Of a DNA stretch of 64,000 nt, positions 26,977 through 48,500 are shown piece after piece. The notes beneath the pieces were generated by a model. The model saw only the letters and a program-made list of their open reading frames with translations, did no database searches and was not told the origin of the DNA. Position 1 is the stretch's first letter. Every line of letters begins with the position of its first letter. The stretch covers positions 15,353 to 79,352 of the forward strand of contig CATLAM010000001.1 of assembly GCA_949878485.1 (NCBI GenBank), written 5' to 3'. The translations under genes and the position numbers were made by a program. This DNA comes from an uncultured Eubacteriales bacterium (GTDB lineage: Bacteria; Bacillota; Clostridia; Christensenellales; UBA1242).

Positions 26977-29327
26977 CAGTTTTTCTCCGTTGATTTTTTA
27001 ATTAATAAAAGTTTGTTGTATAAAGAAGAGTCAGTCAAAGGTTTTTTAACATTTTTATTCTGTGTAATTTGCAGATAAGTTTCCCCGCCAACAAAAATTA
27101 AACCCAACTGCTTAAACACCAAAAATGCCACAAAAAAGGTGTCAAAATTGATGTTTTCCTTCATTTTTTGCTGATAAACATCAAAAATGGTGTAACAACT
27201 TGAAAAATTTCTTGAAGTCAAAACTTTAAAAACTTTGGCAAAAGTTTCTCTGGAAAGGTCAAGATTTGCATATCTTTCTGTGTCCATTGTTCTTTCAACA
27301 GGAAGAAAAATTTCAGCATTTGTCACTGTCTGAAGTTCGGCAATAAAACCTTCATCCAAAACAGGAGAAAGGAAAACTATGTTGTTGAAATTCTTTGCCC
27401 ATTCCGTTCCAACAGGCGAAAGAAGCAAACTGTTAAACCCACTGCATTCTTCATCGAAAATACCAATATGGTAAATGTTATCCTTCGAAAAACTTTTTGA
27501 AAAATTGACAAAATCATAAGCCGAATAGCACACAAACGCTGTGCCAAAAACACTGTGTTGTGTTCTTGCAACAAACTGCAAAAATTGGTCTTTCAAAAAA
27601 TAAGAAAATTTTGCAGGTCTGTTTTCGTTATATTCAAGTTGTTGATATTGAATTGGATATGTGAACATATGAGCGTTTTCCACAATGAAACTTCCCATGT
27701 CAAATTCATCAACAACACCCTTTTTCCCTTCCCCTTGAAATTCAAAAATAAACGATTTATATCTTGCAAATTTTAAAGCATTGTAACTTTGCGTGAAGTT
27801 GAAATAAATAAGTTCCAAATCATCAATTTTGACATCACAATGTGTTGGGCAATATTTTCTTGGTTTAATTTCCACATTCTCTGCACTGATTCTAAACTTA
27901 GGACGCGTGTTTCCGCAACCAAAAGGTTCCAGCATTTTCAACTCTTCCAAAAATTGGTCAGTGATTTCACTTGATTTAATGTCAAGGTCATAATATTTAA
28001 TTGGCATAAAAACTTTGTCATTAACTTTTTCAAAAACAAAAGAGTTTACTCTGTTGCAAAAATCTTCATAATTTTTTCTTTTAAGAGTCAACCCTGCAGC
28101 CATGGTGTGGCCACCAAAAGTTTCCAAAATGTCTGGCATACTTGACAAGAGTTCGTGAATGTTTATGTCATCAATGCTTCTTCCTGAGCCATGCAAAGTG
28201 TCGCCAACTTGTGAAAACAAAAACACAGGTCGGTTATACATCTCCACCAGCCTTGCACAAGCAATTCCCAATATTCCTTGGTCCCAAACCTTGGAAGCAA
28301 GACAAATAACTCTTTTTGTTGAAAGGTCAATTTTAGAAATCGCTTTTTGACAATCTTCCATAATCTTTGAAGAAAGTTCTTGTCTTTTTTGATTATGCTT
28401 TTTAATTTTTTCGATATAAGTAAGTGCCTCTGCAACATCTTCTGTCATATAAAGCATCAAACTGTCGCCCGCATCCCCCATTCTTCCTGAAGAATTAATC
28501 TTAGGTGCAATTTTAAAAGCAATGTCAGTGGATGTCACACTTGAAAGTGATAACTTATTGTCTTTAAACAAAAGTTTCAACCCAACAGGCAACTTGTCAA
28601 GACTTTTAAGTCCGCGTTTAACAATGTTTCTGTTTTCACCAGTAAGTGAAACGATGTCTGCAATGGTGGCAACCGCCGCAATAGGCAAAAATTCTTCTGC
28701 TTTTTTCTGCCCAAGAAGTGCTTCTGAAATTTTGTATGCAAGCCCAGTTCCACAAAGTTCTGTGAAAGGATAGTCCTGTCCTTCAATTTTGGCATTTAAA
28801 ACAATGGTGTCTGGAAGCACATCAGGGATTTCATGGTGGTCAGTCACGCAAATTTCAATACCTTTTTCTTTGGCATATTTAACTTCTTCTGCACACGAAA
28901 TGCCACAATCCACCGTTATGATTAAATCAGGGGCATATTTCTTTTCTATCTTGTCAATTACATCGCATGTTAAACCATAACCGTCTACATAACGGTTAGG
29001 AAGATAATATTGTGCATCGATACCCAGTTTCTTGAGTGTTTTAAGCATTATGGCAGTGGCACTGATTCCGTCCACATCATAATCGCCAAAAATAAGCACC
29101 TTGTCGCCAAGTTGTTTTGCCAAATGTATTCTTTCACACAACTGCTTCATATTTCTGATTAAAAACGGGTCAAGCAGTTTACACACTGAAAGATATTCTT
29201 CAATTTCTTGCTGACTTGAAAGTCCTTTAGATAAAATTAAATACATTGTAGTTGGCAAAACATTGAATTTTCTTGCATACTCAACACACAGGTCGGCATT
29301 TTTGTTAAAAAACTTTTTGAAAATCAT
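26976..29327 (-). CDS. recJ: single-stranded-DNA-specific exonuclease RecJ
   Basis: DHH family motifs 'GDYDVDGISA', 'TVDCG' and 'VTDHHE', in a 783-aa long Firmicute-type form. Confidence 0.9.
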   Translation of the reverse strand: MIFKKFFNKNADLCVEYARKFNVLPTTMYLILSKGLSSQQEIEEYLSVCKLLDPFLIRNMKQLCERIHLAKQLGDKVLIFGDYDVDGISATAIMLKTLKKLGIDAQYYLPNRYVDGYGLTCDVIDKIEKKYAPDLIITVDCGISCAEEVKYAKEKGIEICVTDHHEIPDVLPDTIVLNAKIEGQDYPFTELCGTGLAYKISEALLGQKKAEEFLPIAAVATIADIVSLTGENRNIVKRGLKSLDKLPVGLKLLFKDNKLSLSSVTSTDIAFKIAPKINSSGRMGDAGDSLMLYMTEDVAEALTYIEKIKKHNQKRQELSSKIMEDCQKAISKIDLSTKRVICLASKVWDQGILGIACARLVEMYNRPVFLFSQVGDTLHGSGRSIDDINIHELLSSMPDILETFGGHTMAAGLTLKRKNYEDFCNRVNSFVFEKVNDKVFMPIKYYDLDIKSSEITDQFLEELKMLEPFGCGNTRPKFRISAENVEIKPRKYCPTHCDVKIDDLELIYFNFTQSYNALKFARYKSFIFEFQGEGKKGVVDEFDMGSFIVENAHMFTYPIQYQQLEYNENRPAKFSYFLKDQFLQFVARTQHSVFGTAFVCYSAYDFVNFSKSFSKDNIYHIGIFDEECSGFNSLLLSPVGTEWAKNFNNIVFLSPVLDEGFIAELQTVTNAEIFLPVERTMDTERYANLDLSRETFAKVFKVLTSRNFSSCYTIFDVYQQKMKENINFDTFFVAFLVFKQLGLIFVGGETYLQITQNKNVKKPLTDSSLYNKLLLIKKSTEKN

Positions 29328-29446
29328 GTCTTAAACCTTACTCTTATAAAGATATTATATAATTTTTTGACGTTTTAAGCAAACAAATTCGTAAATAAAT
29401 ATATATTTTTTATTTTATAATATTTTATAATTCTTTAATAAATAAT

Positions 29447-29475
29447 TTGACTAATTTGACTTAACATGCTAGAAT
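29447..29475 (+). promoter_or_regulatory. sigma-A-type promoter of the aspS-gatCAB operon
   Basis: -35 TTGACT (29447-52), 17-nt spacer, extended -10 TGcTAGAAT (29467-75). Confidence 0.55.
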
Positions 29476-29501
29476 AGTGTTGAAACTTTATGGAGCATTA
29501 A

Positions 29502-29555
29502 ATGGACAAACAGAATAATCAAAACAACAATAATTTAAGCAGAGATATTTTTTAG
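29502..29555 (+). promoter_or_regulatory. candidate leader peptide ORF MDKQNNQNNNNLSRDIF (6 Asn, 2 Gln, 2 Asp codons)
   Basis: GGAG at 29492-95 lies 6 nt before the ATG. There are 17 codons and a TAG stop. It lies between the promoter and a terminator hairpin upstream of aspS. Confidence 0.4.
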
Positions 29556-29592
29556 AAAATGTTTCTTTTACGCTGTTGTTCTGTCGTTCAAG

Positions 29593-29621
29593 CGGAGTAG
29601 GAGAAAACTATTCCGTTTTTT
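29593..29621 (+). terminator. leader (attenuator) intrinsic terminator 19 nt before the aspS start
   Basis: CGGAGTAG-GAGAAAA-CTATTCCG (8 bp including one G-T pair) is followed by TTTTTT. The aspS SD AAGGAG follows. Confidence 0.6.
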
Positions 29622-29639
29622 AATAAAAGGAGAAAAAAT

Positions 29640-31388
29640 ATGAGCCAGATTTCACAAAACATTTACAGAACCCACACTTGTGGAGAATTAAGAAAAGAAA
29701 ATGATGGTCAAACTGTCACCTTAAGCGGTTGGATTAACACCATTCGTGATCATGGTGGCATTACTTTCATTGACCTTCGTGACCATTATGGAAGAACACA
29801 ACTTGTCCTTAACTCTTTGCCTGCCTTCAAACTTTCAAAAGAAAGTGTCATCAAAGTGGAAGGAAAAGTTCGTATGCGTTCGGACAACAATTTCAACGAA
29901 AAACTTCCAACAGGACAAATTGAAGTTGTGGCAGATAAAATTGAATTGCTTGGAGAATGCAAGCAAACTCTTCCATTTGAAATTGAAAACAGCAGAAATG
30001 TCAATGAAGAAGTGCGTCTTAAATACAGATTTTTGGATTTAAGAAATCCAGAACTTCAAAACAATATCATTTTCCGTTCAAAAGTTATTCAAGATTTAAG
30101 AAACGAAATGATTGCACTTGGATTTAACGAAATTCAAACCCCTATCTTGACAGTTTCTTCACCAGAAGGTGCAAGAGACTACATCGTTCCAAGCAGATTG
30201 CACCCAGGAAAATTCTATGCTCTTCCACAAGCACCACAACAATTTAAACAACTTTTGATGGTTGCTGGAATGGATAAATATTTCCAAATTGCACCTTGTT
30301 TCCGTGATGAAGACGCTCGTGCTGACAGATGCCCTGGGGAATTCTATCAACTTGATATGGAAATGAGTTTCGCAACACAAGAAGATGTGTTCGCTGTAAT
30401 GGAAACAGTTTTGCCAAAAATCTTTGAAAAATACGGCAAAAGCAAAGTTGACCATGTTCCTTTCGTTCGCATTCCTTATCGTGAAGCCATGGATAAATAT
30501 GGCACAGACAAACCTGACCTTAGAAACCCACTTGTGATTACAAACATCACAAATGTTTTCAGACAAACAACATTCAAAGCATTTGAAAACAAAACAGTTA
30601 AAGCTATTTGTGCCCCAGCCGCTTCTCTTCCAAGAAGAGGTTTTGACGAACTTACAAACTTTGCTTTGGAAAACGGAGCAAAAGGTCTTGCATGGGTTAA
30701 AGTTGGAGAAAACAACGAACTTACTGGACCAATCATCAAGTTTATGACTGAAACAGAACAAAAAGAAATGATTGAAACTTTGAACGCAAAAAATGGAGAT
30801 GCCATTTTCATTGTTGCTGACGAAGACAAAGTTTGTGCAAAAGTGCTTGGACTTTTAAGAACAATGCTTTGTGACAAACTTGGACTTTTGGAAACAGGAG
30901 TTTACAAATTCTGTTGGATTGTTGATTTCCCTATGTATGAACTTAATGAAGAAAGTGGCGAAATAGATTTTTGTCACAACCCATTCAGCATGCCACAAGG
31001 TGGTTTAGAAGCTCTTGAAACAAAACAACCACTTGACATTTTGGCTTATCAATATGACATCATCGTAAATGGTGTGGAACTTTCTTCTGGTGCTGTTCGT
31101 AACCATGACATCAACATCATGCTTAAAGCATTTGAAATTGCTGGCTATGACGAAAAAACAATCGAATCAAAATTCTCCGCACTTTACAACGCTTTCAAAT
31201 TTGGTGCTCCACCTCACGCAGGCATTGCACCAGGTGTTGACAGAATGATTATGCTTCTTTTGGAAGAAAGTTCAATTCGCGAAGTTGTAACCTTCCCTAT
31301 GAACAAGAAAGCACAAGATCTTATGATGAATGCCCCAGGAGAAGTTACAGAAAAACAACTTAGAGAAGTCCACATAAAACTTAGATAA
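29640..31388 (+). CDS. aspS: aspartyl-tRNA synthetase (bacterial type)
   Basis: Class II motifs 'CFRDEDARADRCPGEFYQLDME' and 'GIAPGVDRMIMLL', 582 aa. Confidence 0.95.
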   Translation: MSQISQNIYRTHTCGELRKENDGQTVTLSGWINTIRDHGGITFIDLRDHYGRTQLVLNSLPAFKLSKESVIKVEGKVRMRSDNNFNEKLPTGQIEVVADKIELLGECKQTLPFEIENSRNVNEEVRLKYRFLDLRNPELQNNIIFRSKVIQDLRNEMIALGFNEIQTPILTVSSPEGARDYIVPSRLHPGKFYALPQAPQQFKQLLMVAGMDKYFQIAPCFRDEDARADRCPGEFYQLDMEMSFATQEDVFAVMETVLPKIFEKYGKSKVDHVPFVRIPYREAMDKYGTDKPDLRNPLVITNITNVFRQTTFKAFENKTVKAICAPAASLPRRGFDELTNFALENGAKGLAWVKVGENNELTGPIIKFMTETEQKEMIETLNAKNGDAIFIVADEDKVCAKVLGLLRTMLCDKLGLLETGVYKFCWIVDFPMYELNEESGEIDFCHNPFSMPQGGLEALETKQPLDILAYQYDIIVNGVELSSGAVRNHDINIMLKAFEIAGYDEKTIESKFSALYNAFKFGAPPHAGIAPGVDRMIMLLLEESSIREVVTFPMNKKAQDLMMNAPGEVTEKQLREVHIKLR

Positions 31389-31399
31389 ATGGAGTAAAT

Positions 31400-31672
31400 A
31401 TGGATAAAATTGAACATTTAGAATATCTCAGCAAACTGGAATTTACTGGCGAAGAAAAAGAAAATTTTAAAAAAGAATTTGAAAACATCTTAAAATTCGT
31501 GGATGAGATTGCAAGTTTAGAACTTCCAGAAGGTCTTGATAAAGACACACCAATCACGCTTGACGATCTTAGAACAGACGAGCCACAAGCAAGCATTCCA
31601 CAAGAAGAAGCACTTTCAAATGCACCAAAACAAAAGGACGGATGTTACCTAACTCCGCTGGTGGTGGAATAA
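31400..31672 (+). CDS. gatC: Asp/Glu-tRNA amidotransferase subunit C
   Basis: 90 aa, 'LSKLEFTGEEKENFKKEFENILKFVDEI', located between aspS and gatA. Confidence 0.9.
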   Translation: MDKIEHLEYLSKLEFTGEEKENFKKEFENILKFVDEIASLELPEGLDKDTPITLDDLRTDEPQASIPQEEALSNAPKQKDGCYLTPLVVE

Positions 31673-33093
31673 TGAATTTTTCAGAATTGACAGTTTTGCA
31701 AATTAAAGATTTAATTGCAAACAAAAAAGTGACAAGTGAAGAAGTTGTAAAACACTTCATAAAAGTTTGCGAAGATAAAAAAGTTTTAAACGCTGTTGTT
31801 GAAATTTTTTATGACGCCATTGACAGAGCAAAAGAAATCGACCAAAAAATTGCAAAAGGCGAAAAAATTGGCGCTCTTGCTGGCGTTCCTGTTGCAATTA
31901 AGGACAACATTTTATTTAAAGGCAAAAAAATGGGTTGTGCAAGTAAATTCTTGCAAGATTTTGTCGCACCTTACACATCAACAATTGTTGAAAAATTGTT
32001 AAAAGAAGATGCCATAATCATCGGCAGAACAAACATGGATGAATTTGCCATGGGTTCAAGTTGTGAAAACACCTGTTATGGTGCTTGCCACAACGCACTT
32101 AACCCAGAATATGTTGCTGGCGGAAGCAGTGGCGGAAGTGCATCTGCTGTTACTGGCGGTCTTGTGCCTTGTGCAATCGGAACAGACACAGGTGGCTCTA
32201 TTCGTCAACCTGCATCACTTTGCGGAATTGTAGGTGTGAAACCAACTTATGGAACAGTTTCAAGATTTGGGATTGTCGCTTTTGCAAGTTCACTTGACCA
32301 AGCGTCACCTTTAACAAAAGATATAGAAAGTTCACTTTATGTGCTTAAAATCATGGCTGGAAAAGATGCTCATGACGGCACAACCATAGACAACAAATTT
32401 GAAAAGAATTTAAAACAAAAATACACTCTTGGCGTTTGCAAACAACTTATGCAAACATTTAAAAATGCATCAAACGACAAACATTTCGATGAAACGATTG
32501 AAAAATTAAAGAACAATTTTGATATTGTTGAAGTGGATGTTCCACACATAACAAATTCATTGGCTTCTTATTACATCCTTGCTCCAGCGGAAGCGACATC
32601 CAACCTTGCTCGTTTTGACGGAGTTAAATATACTCGCCGTGCAGAAAACACAAAAGACCTTGAAAGCGTTTATGTAAAAAGCAGAAGTGAAGGTTTTGGG
32701 AAAGAAGTTAAACGCAGAATTATGCTTGGTAACTTTGTTTTATCAAGTGGATATTTTGACGCATATTACAACAAAGCAAAAAAAGTTCAACGCCTTATAA
32801 GACAAGAATTAAAGGAAGCATTTAAAGCATGCGATGCAATAATTATGCCAACAACATTTGGAACTGCGTTTAAACTTGGAGAAAAACTTAATAACCCACT
32901 TGCCATGTATCTTGAAGATTTGTTTACAGTGCCAGCAAACATTGCAGGAATTCCTGCAATTTCCGTGCCTTATGCAACAGCAGATAACGGTTTACCACTT
33001 GGTATGCAATTCTTTGCTGATGAAAGAGAAGAAGAAAAGATGTATGACATTGCAAAAACCTTTGAACAAACAATTAAAGGGGGTGCTTTATGA
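31672..33093 (+). CDS. gatA: Asp/Glu-tRNA amidotransferase subunit A
   Basis: Amidase signature 'GGSSGGSASAV'. The start is at ATG 31672 (TAATG overlap with gatC). Confidence 0.95.
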   Translation: MNFSELTVLQIKDLIANKKVTSEEVVKHFIKVCEDKKVLNAVVEIFYDAIDRAKEIDQKIAKGEKIGALAGVPVAIKDNILFKGKKMGCASKFLQDFVAPYTSTIVEKLLKEDAIIIGRTNMDEFAMGSSCENTCYGACHNALNPEYVAGGSSGGSASAVTGGLVPCAIGTDTGGSIRQPASLCGIVGVKPTYGTVSRFGIVAFASSLDQASPLTKDIESSLYVLKIMAGKDAHDGTTIDNKFEKNLKQKYTLGVCKQLMQTFKNASNDKHFDETIEKLKNNFDIVEVDVPHITNSLASYYILAPAEATSNLARFDGVKYTRRAENTKDLESVYVKSRSEGFGKEVKRRIMLGNFVLSSGYFDAYYNKAKKVQRLIRQELKEAFKACDAIIMPTTFGTAFKLGEKLNNPLAMYLEDLFTVPANIAGIPAISVPYATADNGLPLGMQFFADEREEEKMYDIAKTFEQTIKGGAL

Positions 33094-34511
33094 GTTTTTT
33101 AGAACAATATGATGTTGTAATCGGTTTGGAAATCCATGCCGAACTTAACACAAAAACAAAAGTTTTTTGTGGCTGCAAAAACCAATTCGGTCAAACACCA
33201 AACACAAACACCTGCCCTGTTTGCACAGGAATGCCAGGGGCATTACCAATCTTAAATAAACACGCTGTAGAACTTGCCATAAAATCTGGGCTTTCATTTG
33301 GATGTGAAATTTCTCCTTATTCAGTGTTTGAAAGAAAAAATTATTTCTATCCAGATTTAAGCAAAGCATATCAAATAAGCCAACTTGTTTATCCCCTTTG
33401 TGTTGGTGGTCACATAACACTTGACAGCGGAAAAACAATTCGCCTTAACAGAATTCATTTGGAAGAAGATGCTGGAAAACTCACCCACCTTGGAAAAGCA
33501 ACAGGCTCACTTGTTGATTATAACCGTGGTGGCACTCCACTTATTGAAATGGTTACAGAGCCAGATTTGTCGTCAGCAAACGAAGCAGTTGAATTTTTGA
33601 AGAAAGTCCGTGAAGCACTTATCTTTGAAGAAATTGCAAATTGTAAAATGGAAGAAGGCGGAATGCGTTGCGATGTCAACCTTTCATTGATGAAAAAAGG
33701 CAGTAAAGAATATGGCACAAGAACAGAAATGAAAAACCTTAACTCTTTCAAAAGTGTTCAAAGAGCCATTGAATACGAAGCCGAACGCCAAGCAGAAGTG
33801 CTTGCTTCTGGCGGAGTAATTGTTCAAGAAACAAGAAAATGGGATGATGAAAAAGGCGAAAGTTTTGCCATGAGAAGCAAAGAACAAGCACAGGACTATC
33901 GTTATTTCCCTGACCCTGACTTGCTTCCAATTCAAATTTCAAAAGAAAACATAGAACACATCAAAAGTGAAATGGTTATGCTTCCAAGCGACCGAAGAAC
34001 TCGCTATATGGAAGAATTTGGACTGCCAGAATATGACGCCCAAATATTGACTTCAACAAGATATATCTCTGACTATTTTGAAAAGTGCGTTCAACATTTC
34101 AATGCTCCAAAGAAAATCAGCAACTGGATTATGGTTGACCTTCTTAAACTTGTTAAAGACCAAGAAGAATTCACCTTCCCTGTAAGCGAAGAACATCTTT
34201 CAACAATCATCAAAATGGTGGAAGAAAAAACAATAAACAAAACAGTTGGGCTTCAACTTTTGGATAAAGTCATTGAAACTGGAAAAGAGCCACTTGCCCT
34301 TGCCAAAGAAATGAATTTGCTTGTCACAATTACTGACGAACAAATCATTGAATTACTTGAAAAATTAAAGAGCGAAAATGCAAAGGTTGTTGACGACTTT
34401 AAGAAAACACCAGAAAAAGTAATCGGCTTTATTGTAGGTTATGTTATGAAAAACACTGGTGGAAAAGCCAACTCCAATCGCGTCCGCGAACTTATAGCCG
34501 AAAAATTTTAA
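33090..34511 (+). CDS. gatB: Asp/Glu-tRNA amidotransferase subunit B
   Basis: 'VIGLEIHAELNTKTKVFCGC...CPVCTGMPGALP', with an ATGA overlap with gatA. Confidence 0.95.
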   Translation: MSFLEQYDVVIGLEIHAELNTKTKVFCGCKNQFGQTPNTNTCPVCTGMPGALPILNKHAVELAIKSGLSFGCEISPYSVFERKNYFYPDLSKAYQISQLVYPLCVGGHITLDSGKTIRLNRIHLEEDAGKLTHLGKATGSLVDYNRGGTPLIEMVTEPDLSSANEAVEFLKKVREALIFEEIANCKMEEGGMRCDVNLSLMKKGSKEYGTRTEMKNLNSFKSVQRAIEYEAERQAEVLASGGVIVQETRKWDDEKGESFAMRSKEQAQDYRYFPDPDLLPIQISKENIEHIKSEMVMLPSDRRTRYMEEFGLPEYDAQILTSTRYISDYFEKCVQHFNAPKKISNWIMVDLLKLVKDQEEFTFPVSEEHLSTIIKMVEEKTINKTVGLQLLDKVIETGKEPLALAKEMNLLVTITDEQIIELLEKLKSENAKVVDDFKKTPEKVIGFIVGYVMKNTGGKANSNRVRELIAEKF

Positions 34512-34533
34512 GGGTCAATTTCCCCTTTCATTT

Positions 34534-34567
34534 AAAAAAAGATGGTTTAACCATCTTTTATTTTTTT
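34534..34567. terminator. intrinsic terminator after gatB (convergent with ppa)
   Basis: AAAAGATGG-TTTA-ACCATCTTTT plus a T-run. Confidence 0.65.
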
Positions 34568-34610
34568 AATATATTTGTTCCAAATTTTACATATCAGAAA
34601 ATTGAAACCT

Positions 34611-35150
34611 TTATTTACCTTTCTTTCCAAAAGTTTTCTTATATAATTCTTTGGCATTTTTAATGCATTCAATTGCATCTTCTCTGCCACCAAGTTTCCC
34701 TATGTTAACTTTCTTGTTTTCAAGTTGTTTGTAAACTGTTAAAAAGTGCATAAGTTCATCGAAAATATGTTGAGGCAACGCATTAATGTCACGATAACAA
34801 TTATAAGATGGGTCAGCAAAAGGTATTGCAATAATCTTTTCGTCATGTTCTCCCCTGTCAAGCATGCTGACAACACCAATAGGATAGCAACGAACAAGAC
34901 TGTTCATCTTTATTGATTCACTGCAAAGCACAAAAACATCCAAAGGGTCTTTGTCATCACAATAAGTCTTTGGAATAAAACCATAGTTCATAGGATAGTG
35001 TGTTGCAGTATAAAGCACTCTGTCCATAATGATAAGCCCAGTTTCTTTGTCAAGTTCATATTTAACTTTACACCCTTTTTCAATTTCAATAAAAGCAATA
35101 AAGTCATCAGGTGCAATTCTTTTTTCGTCAATTTCTTTCCAAATATTCAT
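34611..35150 (-). CDS. ppa: family I inorganic pyrophosphatase
   Basis: 'KVKYELDKETG' and 'DPLDVFVL', 179 aa. Confidence 0.9.
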   Translation of the reverse strand: MNIWKEIDEKRIAPDDFIAFIEIEKGCKVKYELDKETGLIIMDRVLYTATHYPMNYGFIPKTYCDDKDPLDVFVLCSESIKMNSLVRCYPIGVVSMLDRGEHDEKIIAIPFADPSYNCYRDINALPQHIFDELMHFLTVYKQLENKKVNIGKLGGREDAIECIKNAKELYKKTFGKKGK

Positions 35151-37772: not shown

Positions 37773-40700
37773 TTAGTTTGCTAAAACATCTTTATTTTCG
37801 ACTTTAACAGGAACAACTGTTCTGTATTTTTTAAGTCCAGTTCCCGCTGGGATAAGTTTACCGATAATGACATTTTCTTTGATTCCGATAAGATTATCAA
37901 CCTTACCTTTCAAAGCAGCATCTGTCAAAACTCTTGATGTTTCTTGGAAAGAAGAAGCAGACAAGAATGATTCTGTTGAAAGTGAAGCCTTAGTAATACC
38001 AAGAAGAATTCTTCTAACGATTGCAGGTCTTCCACCTTCTTTCAACACTCTTTCATTTTCTTCTTCACAACGAGAGATATCAACAACATCACCAGTAAGA
38101 AGATTTGTGTCACCAGAATCTTCAATCTTAACTTTCTTAAGCATTTGTCTGATTATAATTTCAATGTGTTTATCGTTAACTTTAACATCTTGACTTCTGT
38201 AAACAGAGATAACTTCTGAAAGCAAATATTGTTGAAGTCCTTTAAGCCCCTTTGTAACGAGAAGGTCAGAAGGATTGATTGCACCAGCAGTGATTTGAGT
38301 TCCTGGTTCAACAGTGTCACCATTTTTAACTTTCAATACAGCAGGTTTTCTTACTTCATAATCTACATCGCCTTCACCAGTAATGATTGTAATAAGATAA
38401 TTCTTAGCATCTTCTTTAATCTTAACTTTTCCAGCAACTTCGCACAATACACATTCACCTTTTGGTCTTCTTGCTTCAAAAATTTCTTCAACTCTAGGCA
38501 AACCTTGTGTAATATCGGCAGCAACCGCAGCACCACCAGTGTGGAATGTTCTCATAGTCAACTGTGTTCCTGGTTCACCAATTGATTGAGCAGCGATAAT
38601 ACCAACTGCTTCACCATGTGTAACCATATCTTTACCAGCCAAGTTTCTTCCATAACATTTTGCACAAACGCCATGTTTGCAACGGCAAGTAATGAGAGAA
38701 CGAATTTGAACTTCTTTAATTCCTGCTTTAACAACTTGTGTTGCTTGGTCTTTAGAAATCATAGTATTTGCAGGAACAATAATTTCTTTAGTTTTTGGAT
38801 TAATTACATCTTCAACAGCAACTCTTCCGTAAATTCTTTCGTCCAAAGTTTCTTGAATGAAACCATCAACAATAAGGTCACTTACAGTAACGCCCTTAAC
38901 TTTTTCGCCTGCATCAGCAAAACAGTCTTCAGTTGTAATTACCACATCTTGAGCGATGTCAACAAGTCTTCTTGTCAAGTAACCAGAGTCAGCAGTTTTA
39001 AGCGCTGTATCTGACAAACCTTTTCTGGAACCACGAGAGTTAATAAAGTATTCAATAGGTGTCAAACCTTGCTTAAATGAAGATTTGATTGGTGTGTCAT
39101 TCTTAACACCAGAAGCAGTGGCTTTAATACCAATCATACCGCAGTCTTGGTTCAACTGAGTGTTGTTACCACGAGCACCAGAAAGCACCATCAAACTAAA
39201 TGGATTGAAAGTATCTAAGTCCTTAACTACTGCATTTTGAACTTCGTTTACCGCTTCGTTCCAAATAACGATGTTTTCGCTGACTTTTTCATCTTGAGTA
39301 ATAAGTCCACGACGAAGCAATTTTTCATTTTCCAAAACTTTTGCTTCTGCTTCTTTCAAGATTTCAGCCTTTTCCTTTGGTTCTTGAATGTCATAGATGT
39401 TAACTGAAATTGAAGCCAAAGTTGAATATTTATAACCGATGTCCTTAATTCTGTCAACAAGTTTAGAACATTCACTTGTTCCAAATTTGTCATAGCAATC
39501 AGCAACGATTTTCTTAAGTTCTTTCTTCATAACAGGTTTATTGATTTCAAGTTCGCAAATGTTATCTGGATTTGAACGATCAACATAACCTAAGTTTTGT
39601 GGAATAATATTGTTAAACAAAATTCTTCCAACAGAAGTTGTAATTCTCTTTGTATAAGTTTTTCCATCAACTTCTTTAGAAAGTCTAACAGTAATTTCTG
39701 CCTGCAAATCCAAGTTTTTGGTTTGATAAGCATAAATTACTTCATTTTTAGATGCATAAATAGAGCCTTCACCCTTAGCACCTGGTTTCAAAAGTGTTAA
39801 ATAATAACATCCAAGCACAACGTCCTGAGCAGGTGTAACAATAGGTTCACCGTCAGCAAGTTTTAAGATGTTGTTTGAAGCAAGCATCAATGTTCTTGCT
39901 TCTGTTCTTGCATCAATTGAAAGTGGAATATGAACAGGCATTTGGTCACCATCGAAGTCCGCGTTGAACGCAGCACAAACAGAAGGGTGAAGTTTAATCG
40001 CCTTACCTTCAACAAGCACTGGTTCGAAAGCCTGAACAGAAAGTCTGTGAAGTGTTGGTGCTCTGTTTAAAAGAACAGGATGATCTTTAATAACATCAGC
40101 CAAAACGTCCCAAACGATTGGTTTTTCTCTTTCAATCATGCGTTTAGCACTCTTGATGTTGTTTGATTGATTAAGGTCAATCAATCTGTTTATGATAAAT
40201 GGTTTGAAAAGTTCCAAAGCCATTTCTTTAGGAAGACCGCATTGATACATTTTAAGTTCTGGTCCAACAACGATAACTGAACGTCCAGAATAGTCAACAC
40301 GCTTTCCAAGCAAGTTTTGTCTGAAACGACCTTGCTTACCGCTGAGCATAGCAGTTAAAGATTTAAGATCTCTTTGCTTAGAGCCTTGAACAGGTTTTCC
40401 ACGTTTACCGTTATCAATCAAGTTGTCAACTGCTTCTTGCAACATTCTCTTTTCGTTTCTAACGATAACTTCAGGAGCGCCAAGTTCCATAAGTTTTTTC
40501 AATCTGTTGTTTCTGTTGATAACACGACGATAAAGGTCGTTAAGGTCAGAAGTTGCATATCTTCCACCATCCAATGGAACCATAGGTCTAAGATCTGGCG
40601 GAATAACAGGAATTACATCCAAAATCATCCAAGTAGGATTGTTTCCGCTCTTTCTGAAAGATTCAACAATGTCAAGTTTCTTAGCAGCCTTAATTTTGCC

Positions 40701-41306
40701 TTGACCCTTAGCATTTTCAATCTGTTTTTTAAGTTGTTCACTTTCTTTTTCAAGGTCAACATGTGAAAGAAGGACTTTAATTACTTCTGCACCCATGCCA
40801 GCATCAAAACTGCCATAACCAAATTTTTCAACGGCATCACGATATTCTTTGTCGTTTAAAATTTGCTTATATTCAAGATCTGTATTCTTTGGATCTGTAA
40901 CAATGTAATTGATATAATAAACAATTTGTTCCAAAGTCTTAGGAGTTAAGTCCAAAAGAGTACCTATTCTGGATGGAACAGATCTGAAATACCAAATATG
41001 AGTAACAGGACAAGCAAGTTCGATGTGACCCATTCTTTCACGACGAACTTTGCTTCTTGTAACTTCAACGCCACATTTATCGCAGACAACGCCACGGTAA
41101 CGTATTCTCTTATACTTACCACAATGACATTCCCAGTCTTTTTTAGGTCCAAAAATCTTTTCACAGAAAAGGCCATCTTTTTCTGGCTTTTGAGTTCTGT
41201 AATTGATAGTTTCTGGTTTTGTAACTTCACCATGAGACCATTCTCTGATTTTTTCAGGTGAAGCAATACCTATTCTAATTTTTTCAAAGTTGTTTAATTC
41301 AAACAT
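37773..41306 (-). CDS. rpoC: DNA-directed RNA polymerase subunit beta'
   Basis: Zinc motif '[23 protein letters not shown]' and catalytic 'NADFDGDQM', 1177 aa. Confidence 0.98.
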
Positions 41307-41434
41307 TCTTTCTCTCCAAAATTTTATTTTACTCTTTCAAAGTTCATTTAAAAATACTAAGTTTATCAACTTTCTTACAAAGCCACACTTCGTAAGAAAG
41401 TCGCCGCAAACTCGCCAATGAAATGCGAGTTTCG

Positions 41435-44400
41435 TTACTCGTCAAAATCATCAAAGTCGTCAAACATATCAATGTCGTCTACGCCAGCAGGATTTGTTTC
41501 TTCTTCAATTTCAAGTTCGACATCACTCTTTTCGTCGCCACCGACATCGCTGATGACATCATCAATGTCAATAGTAATTTTCTTAAGGTCATTTTCAACA
41601 TCTGTTTCTGGTCCAATCTTGTCTTGTTCGTCTTGTGAAAGTTCTGGCAAGTCGATTTCTTCGTCATTTTCTGTCAAAATCTTGACATCAAGTGCAAGGG
41701 CTTGCAATTCTTTAACCAAAACTTTAAATGATTCTGGAATACCAGGTTCAGCAATAGGTTGCCCCTTAACAATTGCTTCAAAAGTCTTAACTCTTCCGAC
41801 AACGTCATCGGACTTAACAGTAAGCATTTCTTGCAACACATGAGAAGCACCATATGCTTCCAACGCCCAAACTTCCATTTCACCGAATCTTTGACCACCA
41901 AACAAAGCTTTACCGCCAAGTGGTTGTTGAGTGATAAGTGAGTATGGACCAATTGAACGAGCATGAATTTTACTGTCAACCATGTGGTTAAGTTTAAGCA
42001 TATATTCATAACCAATAGTTGTTTTATTTTCAAAAGGTTCGCCAGTTCTTCCGTCATAAAGTTGAACTTTACCGTCTTCTGGGAAATTGTTTTCTTTCAA
42101 AAGTTGTTGAATCTTTTCAGCATCCGCACCATCAAAGTTTGGAGTAGCCACTTTCCAACCAAGTGAACCAGCAACAAGTCCCAAATGAACTTCAAGCACC
42201 TGACCCAAATTCATACGAGAAGGAACGCCAAGTGGGTTCAAAACGATGTCAAGTGGACGACCATTTGCCATATAAGGCATATCTGCTTCTGGCATAACAA
42301 TGGAAATACATCCTTTGTTACCATAACGACCTGCCATCTTATCGCCGACAGAGAGTTTTCTCTTCTGAGCAATGAAAACTTTAACAAGTTCGTTTACACC
42401 AGGTTCAAGTTCGTCTTTATCTTTTCTTGAGAAGACTTGAACATCGACAACAACACCACCTTTACCATGTTGAACACGAAGAGATGTGTCGCGAACTTCT
42501 CTTGCCTTTTCTCCGAAAATAGCACGAAGAAGTCTTTCTTCAGGAGAAAGTTCTGTTTCACCCTTAGGTGTAACTTTACCAACCAAGATATCGCCAGATC
42601 TTACTTCAGCACCAATTCTGATGATTCCGTTTTCATCCAAGTTTTTCAAAGCGTCTTCGCCCAAGTTTGGAATGTCACGAGTGATAACTTCGTCGCCAAG
42701 TTTAGTTGTTCTGCATTTCAATTCTTCAACTTTCAAGCAGATTGATGTGTAAACATCTTCGCGAACAAGTCTTTCATTGATTAAAATCGCGTCTTCATAG
42801 TTATATCCTTCCCAGTTCATGTAACCAACAAGGACATTTTTACCAAGAGCAAGTTCTCCATTATCTGTTGAGTAACCGTCAATGATAACGTCACTCTTCT
42901 TTACTTTTTCGCCTTTAACAACACAAGGCTTTTGGTTGAAACAAGTTTCATCATTTGTCTTGTCAAATTTAATAAGTGTATATATGTCCGTTTCACCATT
43001 TATATTTTTAATTCTAACTTCGTCAGCACTTACATATTCAACAACACCATCTTCTCTTGCAAGTTGTGTGTAACCACAGTCATGAGCAACTTTTGCTTCC
43101 ATACCTGTTCCAACGATTGGAGATTCAGGACGGAGAAGTGGCACTGCTTGTCTCTGCATGTTTGCACCCATAAGCGCACGGTTAGCTTCGTTTGAGTTAA
43201 CGAAAGGAATAAGTGAAGTAGCCACAGAAATAAATTGTCTTGGAGAAGCATCCACAAAATCAACTTGTTTTGCAGGCACTTCAACAGCATAATCTTTGTG
43301 ACGGCAGATAATTCTTTTGTTTATAAATCTACCTTCTTCATCAAGTGGTTCTGTTGCTTGTGCAATATAAGCATTGTCTTCAATGTCAGCCATGAAATAT
43401 TCACATTTGTCAGAAACAACACCAGTTTCTTTGTCCACTCTTCTATATGGAGTTTCAAGGAAACCATATTCATTAACTTTGGCAAAACTTGTCAAAGTGT
43501 TAACCAAACCTATGGCTTGACCTTCAGGAGTTTCAATTGGGCAGATACGGCCATAGTTTGTATAGTGAATATCACGAACTTCAGCGTCTGCTCTTTCTTT
43601 TCTGATACCGCCAGGTCCAACAGCAGAAACACGGCGTTTTTGTGTAATTCCTGAAAGTGGATTTACTTGATCCATAAGTTGTGAAAGTTGTGAAGAAGCA
43701 ACAAATTCTCTCAATGCTCTGTTCACAGCCTTAGGGTTTACGATTTGTCTTGGAGTAACTTCTGAAAGTTCTTTACCTTGCAAAGTTTCTCTGATGTTTG
43801 TAACAAGTCTTGTTACACCAGAACGGAAATGATCATATAAAAGTTCGCCTACTGTTGCAATGCGTTTGTTGGACAAGTGTTCAATCTTATCAACACCGCT
43901 AATATCTTCCAAAACATCAAGATACATGCTGATTGAAGCCAAGATGTCATCCATAGTAAGAGTTGTAATCATTAAATCTTTGGCATGTTCTTTGATTGCT
44001 TGCATTCTCTTTTCTTTTGTTTTGTTGTCTTTCAACAATTCAGCCAAAACAGGATAATAAACTTCTTCCAAAATTCCTAAACTCTTTTCATCGCAAGGGA
44101 AAACATCAGAAAGTCTAACTCTGTTGTTGCCTCTCATGAGATATTTTTTGTCTGGAAGTTGAATCCAAACTTCATTTACACCGCTTGCTTTAATTTTATG
44201 AGCAATTTCAGCAGTTGCAACTGTGCCCGCCTTAGCAATAAGTTCGCCATCTGGAGAAACAACATCTTCAGCAATAGTGTGACCTTCAACTCTTTTTTCA
44301 ATAGACAATTTTTTGTTAAGGTTATATCTTCCAACTCTTGACAAATTATACCATTGATCAGAGAAGAACCAAAGGTTAAGATAACTTCTTGTGGTTTCAG

Positions 44401-45142
44401 CAGAAGGAACATCAGCAGGACGAGTCTTTCTTGCAAATTCAATAAGTGCTTCTTCTTGAGTGTTTTGAGTTTCTTTTTCAAGAACATTCTTAACCAGTCT
44501 GTGGTCACCAAACATCTTAGAAATTTCGTCTGCAGTGTAACCAAAACATTTCAAGAAAAGACCAAGAGTGATTTTATGGCGTCTGTCAAGAACAACTTTC
44601 AAAACTTCGTTTGCACCTTGTTCAAATTCAATATACATACCACGTTTAGGGATGATTTGTCCACGAAGAGTAGAATTATCTCTTGCTTTATCTCTTAAAA
44701 GATAATAGTTTGGAGATTTGATAATTTGATTTACGACAACTCTTTCAACACCATTGAAAATGAAAGAACAATCTTCGGTCATATAAGGAATATCACCCAA
44801 GAAAACAGTATCTTCAACCGCTTGTCCAGTTTCTTCAACGACAAAACGAGTCTTAACATTAAGTGGAATTGAATAAGTTGCACTTCTTCTCTTGCATTCT
44901 TTCTTGTCATATTTTGGAGTTAAATCCAAAATAGGTTCAAGGAAATGCAATTCTGCCTTTCCAGAATAGTCCACAACAGGAGAAAATTCTTGAAGAACTT
45001 CTTTAATTCCATTTGAAATGAAATCTTTATAAGAATCTTTTTGAATTTCAAGAAGTGGTGGAATGTCGATATAATCTTTAAGTTGTGCAAAAGTATATCT
45101 TTCTGCTTTTCCAAATTTCTGTTTTTTCATAATGTTAGACAT
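41435..45142 (-). CDS. rpoB: DNA-directed RNA polymerase subunit beta
   Basis: '[12 protein letters not shown]', '[12 protein letters not shown]' and '[15 protein letters not shown]', with an acidic C-terminal tail. AAGGAG SD. Confidence 0.98.
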
Positions 45143-45559: not shown

Positions 45560-48500
45560 TTAAAATGAATGATCAAATTTCAAGGCCGTGCCAGTAGTTG
45601 TTCCAAAGAAATCGGCAAAAAGAATGTAATTACTTCCGCCTTGTTCAGGTCTTGTGAAAGATATGTCACAGAAGCACACTGAATTGTCAGCAGGAGAAAC
45701 TGATTCTGTTATATAATTTGATTTTGGAACTTCCAATTCTCCATAACTGTCGTTTAAAGTTTCATCCGTAGATTTTAAAGTTATGTTTATGTCAGAACTT
45801 GCAATACCTTTGTCAACCGCATTGACCGTTCCAACAATGGATGAATCAACTTTTTCAAATGTAAATGATGCTCCATTATCAAATCCAATAATTGCCCCCA
45901 TATAAACTTTTACAGTGTTTGTGTAAACTCCTACATAAATTCCATAATTTGGAACAATATCAGTGCCAGTTGATGTAACTTCAAATTTATTACGCAACTG
46001 CTCATCACTTGTAGACATGAAGATGTTTACATTTCTGCTTACCGAGCCAGCCAGACCACCAACCCCAACTTCACATTCTTGTTCGTAAAGTCCGCCAACT
46101 TGCAAGTTTGCCAAAACATCAACATTTTCCAAAGTAAGAGTCGCATTTGTTGTTGCCTTCACTGTTCCTGCAACACCACCTACATAATGATAACCAATTA
46201 AGTCTGCTTTTACATAAATGTTATTTAAAACAGCAGAAGCATTGACCAAACCAGCAATTCCACCCAAAGACTCAAATCCTTTGCTTGCACTTATTGTGCT
46301 TACAGAAATTGACTGTGTAGTTTTAATGTAGTCTAAAGTTCCACCACTTACAAGACCAGCAAAACCACCAATAGCATTTGCAGTATAAGGAACATTTGAG
46401 AAGTTTTTGAAATATTCTCCTGTGCCTATGATTTCCACATTTGACGCATTTCCTTTACTTTCTCCACAAATAAGTCCGCCATAGTTGTAGGCATTTACAA
46501 CATTTTCATTATACATTTTAAGTGTAACTTTATCAACCGTCGCACTTCTGTCAATAAGTCCAAACATTAATCCTGCTTTTGCACCCAAAACAGAAACCAC
46601 TGTATCTTTAACTGTGTTGATTGTCTTTCCGTTTCCACTTAAAACGCCAAAAACAGAACCTGCAAATGAATAAGATGAATAATCTGTAGAACTGCTGTTG
46701 AAATCATTTAAAATAATGCTTTGGTTTCTTGCAACAGCGTCCACACTTGAATAAACATTTTGGAATTTATAATTTCCAAGTGCAAGCCCGGCAACACCAC
46801 CAACAATGTTAAGCCCAGACACACTTATGTTTTTATTTGTGCTTAAATCGCTGTCAACAAAACTGGAATCTGTTAATATGTTGATGTTGACAAGTGTTCC
46901 GCTGTCAACTTTGCCTGCTAATGTTCCCACAACTCTTGTGTTAGAGAAAGAAACAACTTTAGGCAAAATAGTTAAATTCATAACAGTGCCAACAGAATTG
47001 TTACTTGCGCCGCCAATTTCAGCAAACATCCCACCATAAATCAAAGATTCACCAGAAGTTAATGTAATGCCCTTAATTGACATAAAGTTACCTTCCATAT
47101 AACCCATAAATCTGGTTTTGTTAAGCCTGCTGACATCAGAATATTCCGCATAATCAATGTCAGAAATTAATCTGTAATGTTTTTCATTTAAACCAGTAAT
47201 TTGGCTGTTTTCAGAAACAATCAAATTTTCAAAGTTTTCAGCATTATTGAGAAGAATTGGGTTGTAAACTGAGCCATAACTGTTTCCAGTGTAAGCATAA
47301 CTGTAAACAACTGAAACTGACCCTTCTTCACCAACCACTTCACTCACTCCAATCAGATCTCTTTGAGAGCGCGCAACAATGTTTGGAGCAACAAGTTCTA
47401 TTCTGCCAGTGTTAAACTCGCTTTCATTGAAATTGGAAGTGTCACTTACATTTTTATTAAAGAACCAAACCGAGTTTACATCTCTGCCTTCAGCCACAAC
47501 AAAATCGTCAAAATATTCAGAAATATTTCCAAAATCTTTAATTTGAAGTTCTTTAATGTCTGTAAACTGATCTTGTGGAATTCTTTCTATGCTGACATTA
47601 ATTGGTGTTTCATAGTCAGCATCCGAAAGATAATAACAATCTTTAATCACGCCATTTGTAGCGTTTCCATTTCCTGTAGACCCACTTTCCAATTTATTTG
47701 ACCTTGCAAAACCAAATGATGATGCTTGATTACTTGCCAAAACACTGGTTGAGAAACATCTTTCAATATTTCCAACATTTTCATAAACAAACCCAGAAGC
47801 AAAGAAACCACGGTGTTCCAAGTTGATGTTGGAATAACAATCCTTAATGTCGCCTGTGTTGGAGTAAGCAAAACCTGAAATTTGATAACCAGATGAAATT
47901 CTGTTTTCAGTGCCTTCATAGAACACAGAATTCTTATCAGCCACACCACTTACATAAGATGTATAAATTTTTCCGTTGTTTACAACAACAAACCCAGCAG
48001 TGTTTCTTACAGCAGTGGAGTTTAAAATGCTTGAGCCATAATAATAACTGCTTGTAATTACACCAGACGAGCCGTTTGTGCCAACCAAACCTGCGATATT
48101 TGCATTACCTCTGATGTTAACCTTAGAACGAGAGTGAGTTATATATGCATTGTTTGTTCCTACAAGTCCGCCTATGTAATTTGATGAAGCATCAGTAAAA
48201 TTATTGACAATCAAACTTGCACCATTCAAAGATTCTGCTTGACAGTTTGTCACAATTCCGTTGTTTGTCGAAGCAAGAAGCCCAATGTTGAATGATTGTG
48301 CATTAATGTTGAAAGTTGTGTCAGATGAAATTCTTATGTTAATATTACTTAAAATTGCTTCATCAACAATTTCAGTAAACAATCCAATTTCAGAATCTTC
48401 AAAAGTATATTCTCCAGAGAAATTGATATTGTATCCATTTCCGTCAAGTCCAGCAATGGATGCAGAAATTGGCATAAACTGGCTTTCTCCTTCATTTGCT

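Follow-up and report, generated by a model that had tools for sequence, protein, structure and literature searches.

A probable asparagine-codon leader-peptide attenuator upstream of the aspS-gatCAB operon in uncultured Clostridia

Organization of the leader and the aspS-gatCAB operon

The DNA analysed here is a 64-kb stretch of contig CATLAM010000001.1 from an uncultured Clostridia bacterium (hereafter the window), in which an aspS-gatCAB operon is preceded by a short leader carrying an open reading frame (ORF) with a cluster of Asn codons. The original prediction, made by inspection of the sequence, proposed that this Asn-rich leader ORF and the terminator behind it form a ribosome-mediated attenuator that replaces a T-box. 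Our analysis supports that core idea through the conservation of the leader among relatives, its interchange with T-boxes, and an antiterminator whose predicted formation depends on the position of the ribosome, and we consider it likely that the leader acts as a ribosome-mediated, Asn-codon-specific transcription attenuator of aspS-gatCAB. The leader and the operon comprise the following features:

29447-29475 (+), sigma-A type promoter: -35 element TTGACT at 29447-52, 17-nt spacer, extended -10 element TGcTAGAAT ending at 29475
29492-29495 (+), Shine-Dalgarno sequence (SD) of the leader ORF, GGAG, 6 nt 5' of the ATG at 29502
29502-29555 (+), leader ORF, 17 codons plus stop, encoding MDKQNNQNNNNLSRDIF
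29514-29534 (+), putative regulatory codons AAT AAT (CAA) AAC AAC AAT AAT: six Asn with one Gln within
29592-29621 (+), intrinsic terminator: stem 29592-600/29608-16, 7-nt loop, U6 at 29616-21; -12.7 kcal/mol
29629-29632 (+), SD of aspS, GGAG
29640-31388 (+), aspS, bacterial-type aspartate-tRNA ligase, 582 aa (NCBIfam NF001750, 795 bits), with an RDHGG motif
31400-31672 (+), gatC, by NCBIfam equivalog model
31642 or, more likely, 31672 to 33093 (+), gatA, by NCBIfam equivalog model and the gene call in a 97% relative
33090-34511 (+), gatB, by NCBIfam equivalog model
34537-34569 (+), operon-end terminator: 10-bp stem followed by a T-run

The promoter has 10/12 matches plus the TG and is the top-scoring promoter-like site within 29000-35000; the transcript probably starts near 29482-83, about 20 nt 5' of the leader ORF. 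The codons of the ORF are ATG GAC AAA CAG AAT AAT CAA AAC AAC AAT AAT TTA AGC AGA GAT ATT TTT TAG, with 6 Asn (29514-19 and 29523-34) and 2 Gln (CAG at 29511-13 and CAA at 29520-22) in 17 codons. Within the Asn cluster, AACAACA (29523-29) is the exact complement of TGTTGTT (29574-80). The terminator stem consists of 9 pairs, 8 Watson-Crick and one G-U, and 18 nt separate the end of its U-run from the aspS ATG at 29640. The whole leader is only about 140 nt long, of which the ORF occupies 54 nt. Thus the promoter (TTGACT, 17 nt, TGcTAGAAT), the GGAG placed 6 nt before an ATG, the count of Asn and Gln codons and the AACAACA/TGTTGTT complementarity, all described in the original prediction, were found as described; its terminator hairpin with T6 also stood, with the stem corrected from 8 bp to 9 pairs. 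A 3-codon ORF (ATG GAG CAT TAA, 29490-29501) overlaps the leader SD, and its stop abuts the leader ATG; it is probably incidental, and in L161, a relative with 97% AspS identity, a 1-nt deletion alters its frame and stop.

The identity of the downstream genes as aspS-gatCAB, proposed earlier, was borne out by NCBIfam equivalog models, with gatC, gatA and gatB matching TIGR00135, TIGR00132 and NF004012; the GatCAB enzyme is annotated there as a dual Asp/Glu amidotransferase. For gatA, a start at 31642, the first in-frame ATG, would give a 31-nt overlap with gatC. The gene call in the 97% relative, assembly GCA_949841245.1, is a 473-aa gatA beginning at the gatC stop; the equivalent position in the window is 31672 (an ATGA-type overlap), and judging from this the true start is probably 31672. 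His at the RDHGG position is a mark of non-discriminating bacterial aspartyl-tRNA synthetase (AspRS), as in Pseudomonas aeruginosa (H31), Leu being found in Escherichia coli and Bacillus subtilis. The RDHGG motif is present in all 15 AspS proteins compared (the window and its relatives), and the His in the window protein would be this non-discriminating marker, for which the literature search gave no confirmation. No second class-IIb synthetase (AspS paralogue) is encoded within the 64-kb window.

Leader peptides and T-boxes in related lineages

Scans of genome and metagenome collections with AspS peptide patterns placed the window among metagenome-assembled genomes of uncultured Clostridia, the nearest among the matches listed being 71% and 62% identical (AspS percentages given for single loci are identity to window AspS), and the Asn leader was already visible in two (L002 and L006) of the 160 loci obtained in this way. 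A protein search then yielded a graded AspS series from 97% identity downward, and contigs were retrieved for twelve. The regions upstream of aspS were assigned as follows:

L161/L162 (AspS 97%): leader peptide identical to that of the window; aspS-gatCAB
L169/L170 (89% and 88%): leader peptide MKICVFNDNNNNNNTF; aspS-gatCAB
L167/L168 (80%): leader peptide MIFVNINNNNNNNSSNFTN; aspS-gatCAB
L174 (74%): leader peptide MFTVLANNNNNNNIIITQ; aspS alone
L002 (71%): promoter, SD, leader peptide MVKVILVNNNNNNNFNVTQ ending in a stop codon, strong terminator; aspS alone
L006 (61%): leader peptide MIRVCLINNNNNNNDNNTLYLMRPFSIVC ending in a stop codon, terminator; aspS-gatCAB
L163/L164 (89%), L165/L166 (88%), L173 (77%) and L175 (75%): T-box, 135-150 bits in Rfam; all aspS-gatCAB
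L171 (79%) and L172 (78%): reduced T-box-like leader; aspS alone, without gatCAB
L001 (71%) and L176 (73%): neither leader ORF nor T-box

Conservation of an Asn-rich mini-ORF upstream of aspS, a test suggested with the original prediction, was thus found in five further divergent lineages of uncultured Clostridia (AspS 61-89%), all with the same layout. The six distinct leader-peptide leaders (window/L161, L169/L170, L167/L168, L174, L002 and L006; AspS 61-97% identical) share one order of elements: promoter, SD, short ORF with an Asn run, pyrimidine-rich strand beside the stop codon, terminator and aspS. The promoter layout TTGACA-17-TGnTAnnnT is present in 6/6, and the orthologous leaders have a purine-rich, SD-like sequence (GGAG, GGG, GGAAG, GGGAG or GGGG, with a weaker GAG in L167) about 3-10 nt 5' of the assigned start codon. 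The Asn run, 2+4 in the window and 6-7 consecutive residues elsewhere, is the sole peptide feature conserved across the six leaders; it is usually preceded by a few hydrophobic residues, and its pattern of AAT and AAC codons varies. Since the peptides share only the Asn run and differ in their AAT/AAC patterns, they fit selection on codon identity and not on the peptide product. An alignment of the leaders made with MAFFT lines up the promoter, the Asn run, the pyrimidine strand and the terminator.

The four full T-boxes have an invariant specifier region, ...AAC-A-CUUYGGAG, in which the specifier codon, read by eye in the Rfam register, is AAC (Asn) followed by the usual purine. In a neighbour-joining tree of the 15 AspS proteins (no bootstrap), leader-peptide and T-box lineages are interleaved: the group of window, L161 and L169 is nested with the T-box lineages L163 and L165, L167 is the next branch out, L002 and L174 pair with L172, and L006, the most divergent, was chosen as root. 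The Asn leader peptide and the Asn T-box therefore share one site ahead of the same genes, among lineages whose AspS proteins are up to 88-90% identical, which is strong comparative evidence that the two devices do the same job.

The T-box-like leader of L171 (1072-1249) scores 66.8 bits against an Rfam gathering score of 93 and lacks most of the stem II region; that of L172 (about 2040-2270) was assigned by eye from the GGGUGGCACCGCG motif and a terminator. The specifier of both is ambiguous, either AAC (Asn) with an extra purine or, by the Rfam register, ACG/ACA (Thr). In L176 (2420-2500), which has no leader peptide or T-box, the region upstream of aspS contains nothing more than a promoter and, 8 nt 5' of the SD, a small hairpin (AACCTCGTACACGAGGTT); in L001 (2600-2735) likewise neither device precedes aspS. 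With a leader peptide, a T-box or neither before aspS, at least three regulatory states exist in this group.

In L167 and L006, aspS begins 166-175 nt past the attenuator terminator, and the gap holds a second conserved element (L167:2335-2400 and L006:2847-2935) that has no counterpart in the window. Its parts are a strong SD (UUUAGGAG), a small ORF (MRNNINARWGEIS in L167 and MKITQKLKTNAQLGENFIK in L006) and a conserved GC hairpin, AAYGCCC-N4-GGGCGAAA(A)UU; a further step of regulation is one possible role, processing or stability another.

Distribution of Asn-rich mini-ORFs and sequence conservation

The window has a G+C content of about 33%, so the concern voiced with the original prediction, that such an ORF might arise by chance in AT-rich DNA, was reasonable and needed testing. 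Both strands of 175 distinct related, mostly AT-rich loci (1.10 Mb) were scanned, giving 20,533 mini-ORFs of 8-45 codons. All mini-ORFs with at least six Asn in 8 codons (9/9) are located just upstream of aspS, on the aspS strand. This target space makes up 2.8% of the space scanned, and the probability that six independent leaders would all fall in it is about 5e-10. The 64-kb window holds one other mini-ORF with at least five Asn in 8 codons, which is located inside a gene.

Comparison of the window with L161 revealed 0 changes in the 122 nt from the leader ATG through the U-run, against a DNA identity of 92.2% for aspS (7.8% divergence), 89.7% for recJ and 89.0% for gatCA. The 312-nt spacer contains 13 differences, all of them outside the 122-nt stretch. 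Complete identity over this length would have a probability of about 5e-5 if the leader changed as fast as aspS, and of 2e-4 if it changed as fast as the spacer, which indicates that the leader ORF and its structures are under purifying selection. Together, the 9/9 location and the 0/122 changes disfavour a chance origin of the mini-ORF.

Search for T-boxes and other RNA families

A search of the whole 64 kb at Rfam gathering thresholds returned tRNA as the sole match, with no T-box and no leader-peptide family, and the covariance models of the Trp, His, Leu, Thr, Phe and other leader families gave no match in the window. The T-box model (RF00230) had no match in 29300-29700 even at E <= 10, although the same model scores L163, L165, L173 and L175 at 135-150 bits and thus served as a positive control. 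Likewise, the T-box sequence GGUGGNACCGCG, searched for across the 64 kb allowing two mismatches at most, does not occur near the leader; its sole match (38526-37, minus strand) lies within a gene, and one match is the number expected by chance. The earlier statement that no T-box is visible here was accordingly upheld under profile search, which detected neither a cryptic T-box nor a riboswitch. The orthologous leader-peptide leaders also had no Rfam match at gathering score.

The permissive scan (29300-29700, E <= 10) gave three sub-threshold matches, none of them to a T-box or leader family. Freshwater-2 (24.5 bits against a gathering score of 49.9, E 0.1) was set down to chance, as it rests mainly on the terminator hairpin and U-run and the aspS SD and ATG; SSRC34_2 (19.5 bits against 48, E 0.88), resting mainly on the terminator hairpin and U-run, was dismissed in the same way.

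Alternative RNA structures of the leader

Folding of the window leader predicted three structures in addition to the terminator:

29503-29590 (+), helix A, long-range: 29503-07/29586-90 and 29510-19/29575-84; -10.4 kcal/mol; in both the minimum free energy (MFE) and centroid folds
29541-29566 (+), hairpin B: 29541-51/29556-66; -7.3 kcal/mol
29562-29606 (+), antiterminator: UUUCUUUUAC (29562-71) with GUAGGAGAAA (29597-606), and CUGUU (29573-77) with AGCGG (29591-95)

The ribosome-free MFE fold of the window leader combines helix A, hairpin B and the terminator, and the leader folds better than its shuffles (z = -2.97). When the leader is free of ribosomes, helix A links the start of the ORF to the GUUGUUCUGU segment, and hairpin B ties up the first bases of the antiterminator strand by pairing them with the final codons and stop of the ORF. 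The antiterminator has 15 pairs and a predicted energy of -13.9 kcal/mol versus -12.7 for the terminator; it shares bases with the terminator 5' arm, hairpin B and helix A and so excludes all three. The original prediction had failed to resolve an antiterminator by eye and had suggested folding the region for mutually exclusive structures; folding yielded one, in which 29562-77 pairs with 29591-606 in competition with the terminator. The aspS SD (29629-32) is unpaired in all predicted structures of the window.

In all six leaders, the RNA that would be freed by a ribosome on the last Asn codon holds a strand complementary to the terminator, with duplex energies of -12.9 to -19.9 kcal/mol. Against mononucleotide shuffles, the p values of these duplexes are 0.033 for the window and 0.073, 0.028, 0.004, 0.009 and 0.019 for the others, which combine to 4e-6 by Fisher's method. 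This strand reads UUUCUUUUAC in the window and is UUGG(U)GGGUYYCCUUUU-like in the other leaders. Relative to the end of the stop codon, the strand begins at -5 to +4 nt in five leaders; in L006 it lies within the longer ORF. The window segment 29562-71 starts 6 nt after the stop codon. Since the strand lies next to the stop codon or inside the ORF, a terminating ribosome would mask it in every leader. In the absence of a ribosome, hairpin B captures the strand in the window, the SD region of the leader itself does so in L174, L002 and L006, and the terminator forms. The pairing partner differs: in the window and L006 it is mainly the terminator 5' arm together with the loop, in L169, L167, L174 and L002 the loop together with the 3' arm. 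A single consensus structure for all leaders was set aside because the strand pairs with different parts of the terminator among them. Pairing is nevertheless kept through sequence changes, as with UUUCC:GGAAA in L174 versus UUUUC:GAAAA in L002.

Dependence of the structures on ribosome position

The modelling was thermodynamic and comprised equilibrium folds with a masking ribosome, co-transcriptional truncations, and energies with the terminator forced or forbidden; the ribosome was represented as a block spanning -15 to +14 nt relative to the A-site codon. For a transcript ending before the terminator 3' arm, with a ribosome placed at the last Asn codon, the predicted MFE structure of the window is the 15-pair antiterminator. 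In this truncated transcript, the terminator 5' arm of the window is paired with a probability of 0.86-0.89 when the A site is on the Asn codons versus 0.55 when it is on the stop codon; a ribosome at the stop covers 29562-67 and so blocks the antiterminator, the residual 0.55 coming from weak pairing with the 5' end. In L006, the corresponding values are 0.74-0.87 at Asn codons versus 0.21 at the stop. At full-length equilibrium L169 alone switches, with a terminator probability of 0.00 at the Asn codons and 0.91 at the stop.

For each leader, the best fold lacking the terminator was compared in free energy with the best fold containing it (the former minus the latter, kcal/mol):

Window: 3.9 with the ribosome on the last Asn, 10.1 at the stop codon
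L169: -7.0 on the last Asn, 3.9 at the stop codon
L167: 5.5 on the last Asn, 14.7 at the stop codon
L174: 4.7 on the last Asn, 10.9 at the stop codon
L002: 15.0 on the last Asn, 16.3 at the stop codon
L006: 7.6 on the last Asn, 11.0 at the stop codon

The advantage of the terminator is smaller on the last Asn than at the stop by 3-11 kcal/mol in five of the six leaders (1.3-10.9 overall).

Proposed mechanism

The window leader combines an SD-led ORF, a cluster of cognate codons, a terminator and, by thermodynamic modelling, a mutually exclusive antiterminator. What was observed, namely these sequence elements and how they are conserved, their alternative pairings, and the exchange of the leader for Asn T-boxes, can be joined into a model for which we infer translation of the ORF, stalling, a kinetic order of folding and the regulatory outcome. 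A ribosome would load on the leader ORF as RNA polymerase moves on. With ample Asn-tRNA(Asn), it would reach the UAG at 29553 and mask the antiterminator strand (29562-71); with the strand masked, the terminator (29592-616 and U6) would form, and transcription would end at 29616-21, 18 nt short of aspS. Under a shortage of Asn-tRNA(Asn), the ribosome would stall on the Asn codons (29514-34), opening helix A and hairpin B and leaving 29562-77 free to pair with 29591-606 as soon as the latter is made, which would remove the terminator 5' arm and allow read-through into aspS-gatCAB. If no ribosome loads, helix A and hairpin B would hold the antiterminator strand and the terminator would form, so that the default state is off.

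The species sensed would be the end product of the two-step route (a presumably non-discriminating AspRS followed by GatCAB), as delivered to the ribosome. As L174 and L002 carry the leader before aspS alone, the regulated unit would be the AspRS gene, with or without gatCAB, and its placement under Asn rather than Asp codons is indirect evidence that the limiting job of the enzyme is the charging of tRNA(Asn). A T-box responds to nothing but acylation at the 3' end of the tRNA, and would count Asp-tRNA(Asn) as charged. EF-Tu rejects Asp-tRNA(Asn), so a ribosome sensor should respond to a failure of amidation that is invisible to a T-box. We suggest, tentatively and as a possibility somewhat short of even, that the leader reads completed amidation, unlike the T-box, and would induce gatCAB when amidation or the amide donor is limiting. 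If so, the repeated swaps between T-box and leader peptide would represent selection between two control logics for the same operon.

Several points weigh against attenuation by Asn codons. At full-length equilibrium the terminator is kept in every ribosome state in 5/6 leaders, including the window, and the switch therefore needs a kinetic order in which the antiterminator forms before the terminator 3' arm is transcribed; the same holds for the E. coli trp attenuator, in which the terminator (3:4) is more stable than the antiterminator (2:3). The ribosome footprint used in the modelling was assumed, and the effect of ribosome position in L002 is small (1.3 kcal/mol). The shuffles of the freed duplexes preserve mononucleotide content only, and the combined p value of 4e-6 is optimistic because the six leaders are homologous. 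The Asn run of the window is the shortest of the six and is interrupted (NNQNNNN). Transcription-translation coupling is reported to be weak in B. subtilis; if this holds in the present lineage, a ribosome-timed attenuator is less plausible. Finally, a non-discriminating AspRS and an absence of asnS can be no more than presumed from 64 kb.

Alternative explanations

The simplest alternative is a chance mini-ORF in an AT-rich spacer, with the hairpin acting as a constitutive partial terminator or insulator and with no regulation by Asn. AAT/AAC repeats arise easily in DNA of about 33% G+C, and the terminator is thermodynamically favoured in all modelled states of the window. Nevertheless, across the 1.1 Mb of equally AT-rich loci Asn-run ORFs are restricted to the region upstream of aspS, and they are kept over AspS identities of 61-89%, each with an SD, a start codon and a stop beside the antiterminator strand. 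Considering also the 0 changes in 122 nt against 7.8% in aspS, and a site that is interchangeable with an Asn T-box, this explanation appears highly improbable. That interchange is also what could favour a cryptic T-box, or another ligand-, tRNA- or protein-binding RNA with an incidental ORF: close relatives use T-boxes at the same site, and the reduced leaders of L171 and L172 (66.8 bits for L171), below the Rfam threshold, show that divergent T-boxes occur in the group. However, nothing T-box-like was found in the window even at E <= 10, GGUGGNACCGCG is absent near the leader, the freshwater-2 and SSRC34_2 matches are far under their gathering scores, and the leader is only about 140 nt long, 54 nt of which are ORF; such an RNA is scarcely credible.

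The leader might instead be translated and control translation or mRNA stability, for example by opening or closing the aspS ribosome-binding site or with the pyrimidine strand acting mainly as an anti-SD of the leader. The ribosome-free MFE folds of L174, L002 and L006, which pair the CCUUUU strand with the leader's own SD, are consistent with this, as is the distance of 166-175 nt between terminator and aspS in L167 and L006 with its conserved element. We regard it as very unlikely, given that in every leader a run of 4-7 U comes straight after a G+C-rich hairpin, as is characteristic of an intrinsic terminator, that the aspS SD of the window is unpaired in all predicted structures, and that the T-boxes replacing the leader are themselves terminator/antiterminator devices. 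A further alternative concerns specificity. The original prediction had envisaged stalling on both Asn and Gln codons, so that both products of GatCAB would be sensed and stalling at CAG or CAA would also relieve termination. The window and its 97% relative do carry Gln at positions 4 and 7, in or beside the Asn run, the enzyme is annotated as a dual Asp/Glu amidotransferase, and the peptides of L002 and L174 end in Gln. However, there are no Gln codons in the leaders of L169, L167 and L006, and the single Gln of L002 and L174 is the last codon, where a stalled ribosome would cover the antiterminator strand and favour termination. Moreover, the T-boxes of sister lineages have an invariant AAC specifier, and two lineages use the leader for aspS alone, without gatCAB. 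The Asn part of the earlier proposal is thus supported and its Gln part is not conserved, a Gln within the run being confined to the window and its 97% relative; combined Asn/Gln sensing is unlikely, and it would be possible in the window lineage only, where it is weakly supported.

Genomic surroundings

The recJ gene is divergent on the upstream side of the aspS operon, and a gene for inorganic pyrophosphatase and a tRNA gene lie downstream. The tRNA gene 3' of gatB was considered as a candidate tRNA-Asn and rejected, as it is tRNA-Leu(CAA). Elsewhere in the window, a giant ORF of 3477 aa (45560-55993, minus strand) adjoins ORFs of 1235 aa and 1177 aa at 37773-45142; the size of the 1177-aa ORF matches that of an RNA-polymerase Rpb1-domain gene (rpoC-like) found upstream of aspS in L163 and L170.

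Comparison with known systems

The classical leader-peptide attenuators are those of E. coli (trpL, hisL, pheL/pheM, thrL and leuL), among which pheM-pheST is a precedent for an aminoacyl-tRNA synthetase operon. Like them, the window leader has an SD-led ORF with a run of cognate codons and a terminator before the first structural gene, and its predicted antiterminator is mutually exclusive with the terminator and dependent on ribosome position, the default without translation being off. It differs in its Asn codons, in its host, an uncultured member of the Clostridia and not of the Proteobacteria or Actinobacteria, in having no sequence or Rfam similarity to the classical families, and in its target, which is tRNA-dependent transamidation and not amino-acid biosynthesis.

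Closer parallels are found in a His leader upstream of hisS paralogues and hisZ in bacilli, with a switch from T-box to leader peptide at a syntenic hisS (Naville & Gautheret 2010, PMC2965389), in the cysS uORFC-8-2 motif of Rhodobacterales, in which tandem Cys codons control cysS (Brewer et al. 2021, PMC8632094), and in the leucine-rich attenuator peptide of Staphylococcus aureus ilv (PMC5794164). In these systems, as in the window, an aminoacyl-tRNA synthetase or amino-acid operon is placed under an upstream ORF with cognate codons and a terminator; the amino acid, the operon and the taxon differ. Unlike the hisS case, the swap described here recurs among lineages as close as 88-90% AspS identity, and unlike the hisS and cysS systems, the synthetase gene stands under codons for Asn, not for Asp.

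The counterpart nearest in function is the T-box with an Asn specifier that controls Clostridium acetobutylicum genes for tRNA-dependent amidation (Saad et al. 2012, 2013, as cited in PMC4206432). As far as that citation describes it, it shares with the window leader the AspRS and GatCAB functions and an output of terminator versus antiterminator; the T-box senses by direct tRNA-RNA contact, in contrast to the translating ribosome that would be the sensor here. An earlier survey reported no T-boxes before amidotransferase genes (PMC2494555).

Our full-text literature search, which was incomplete in coverage and gives absence of evidence only, found neither an Asn-codon leader peptide nor leader-peptide control of aspS-gatCAB described. 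If the proposed mechanism is true, asparagine would join the short list of amino acids sensed by leader-peptide attenuation, and this would be, within the literature searched, the first leader-peptide control described for tRNA-dependent transamidation. Ribosome-timed attenuators in Firmicutes of the class Clostridia, where the T-box is the norm, would bear on how closely transcription and translation are coupled there. Furthermore, the occurrence of the same operon with an Asn T-box, an Asn leader peptide or neither in near lineages offers a natural comparison of sensing strategies, including whether the ribosome sensor alone detects a failure of amidation. Compared with the systems above, what would be new in the window leader is its specificity for Asn, its target and its taxon, the proposed mechanism being of a kind already known.

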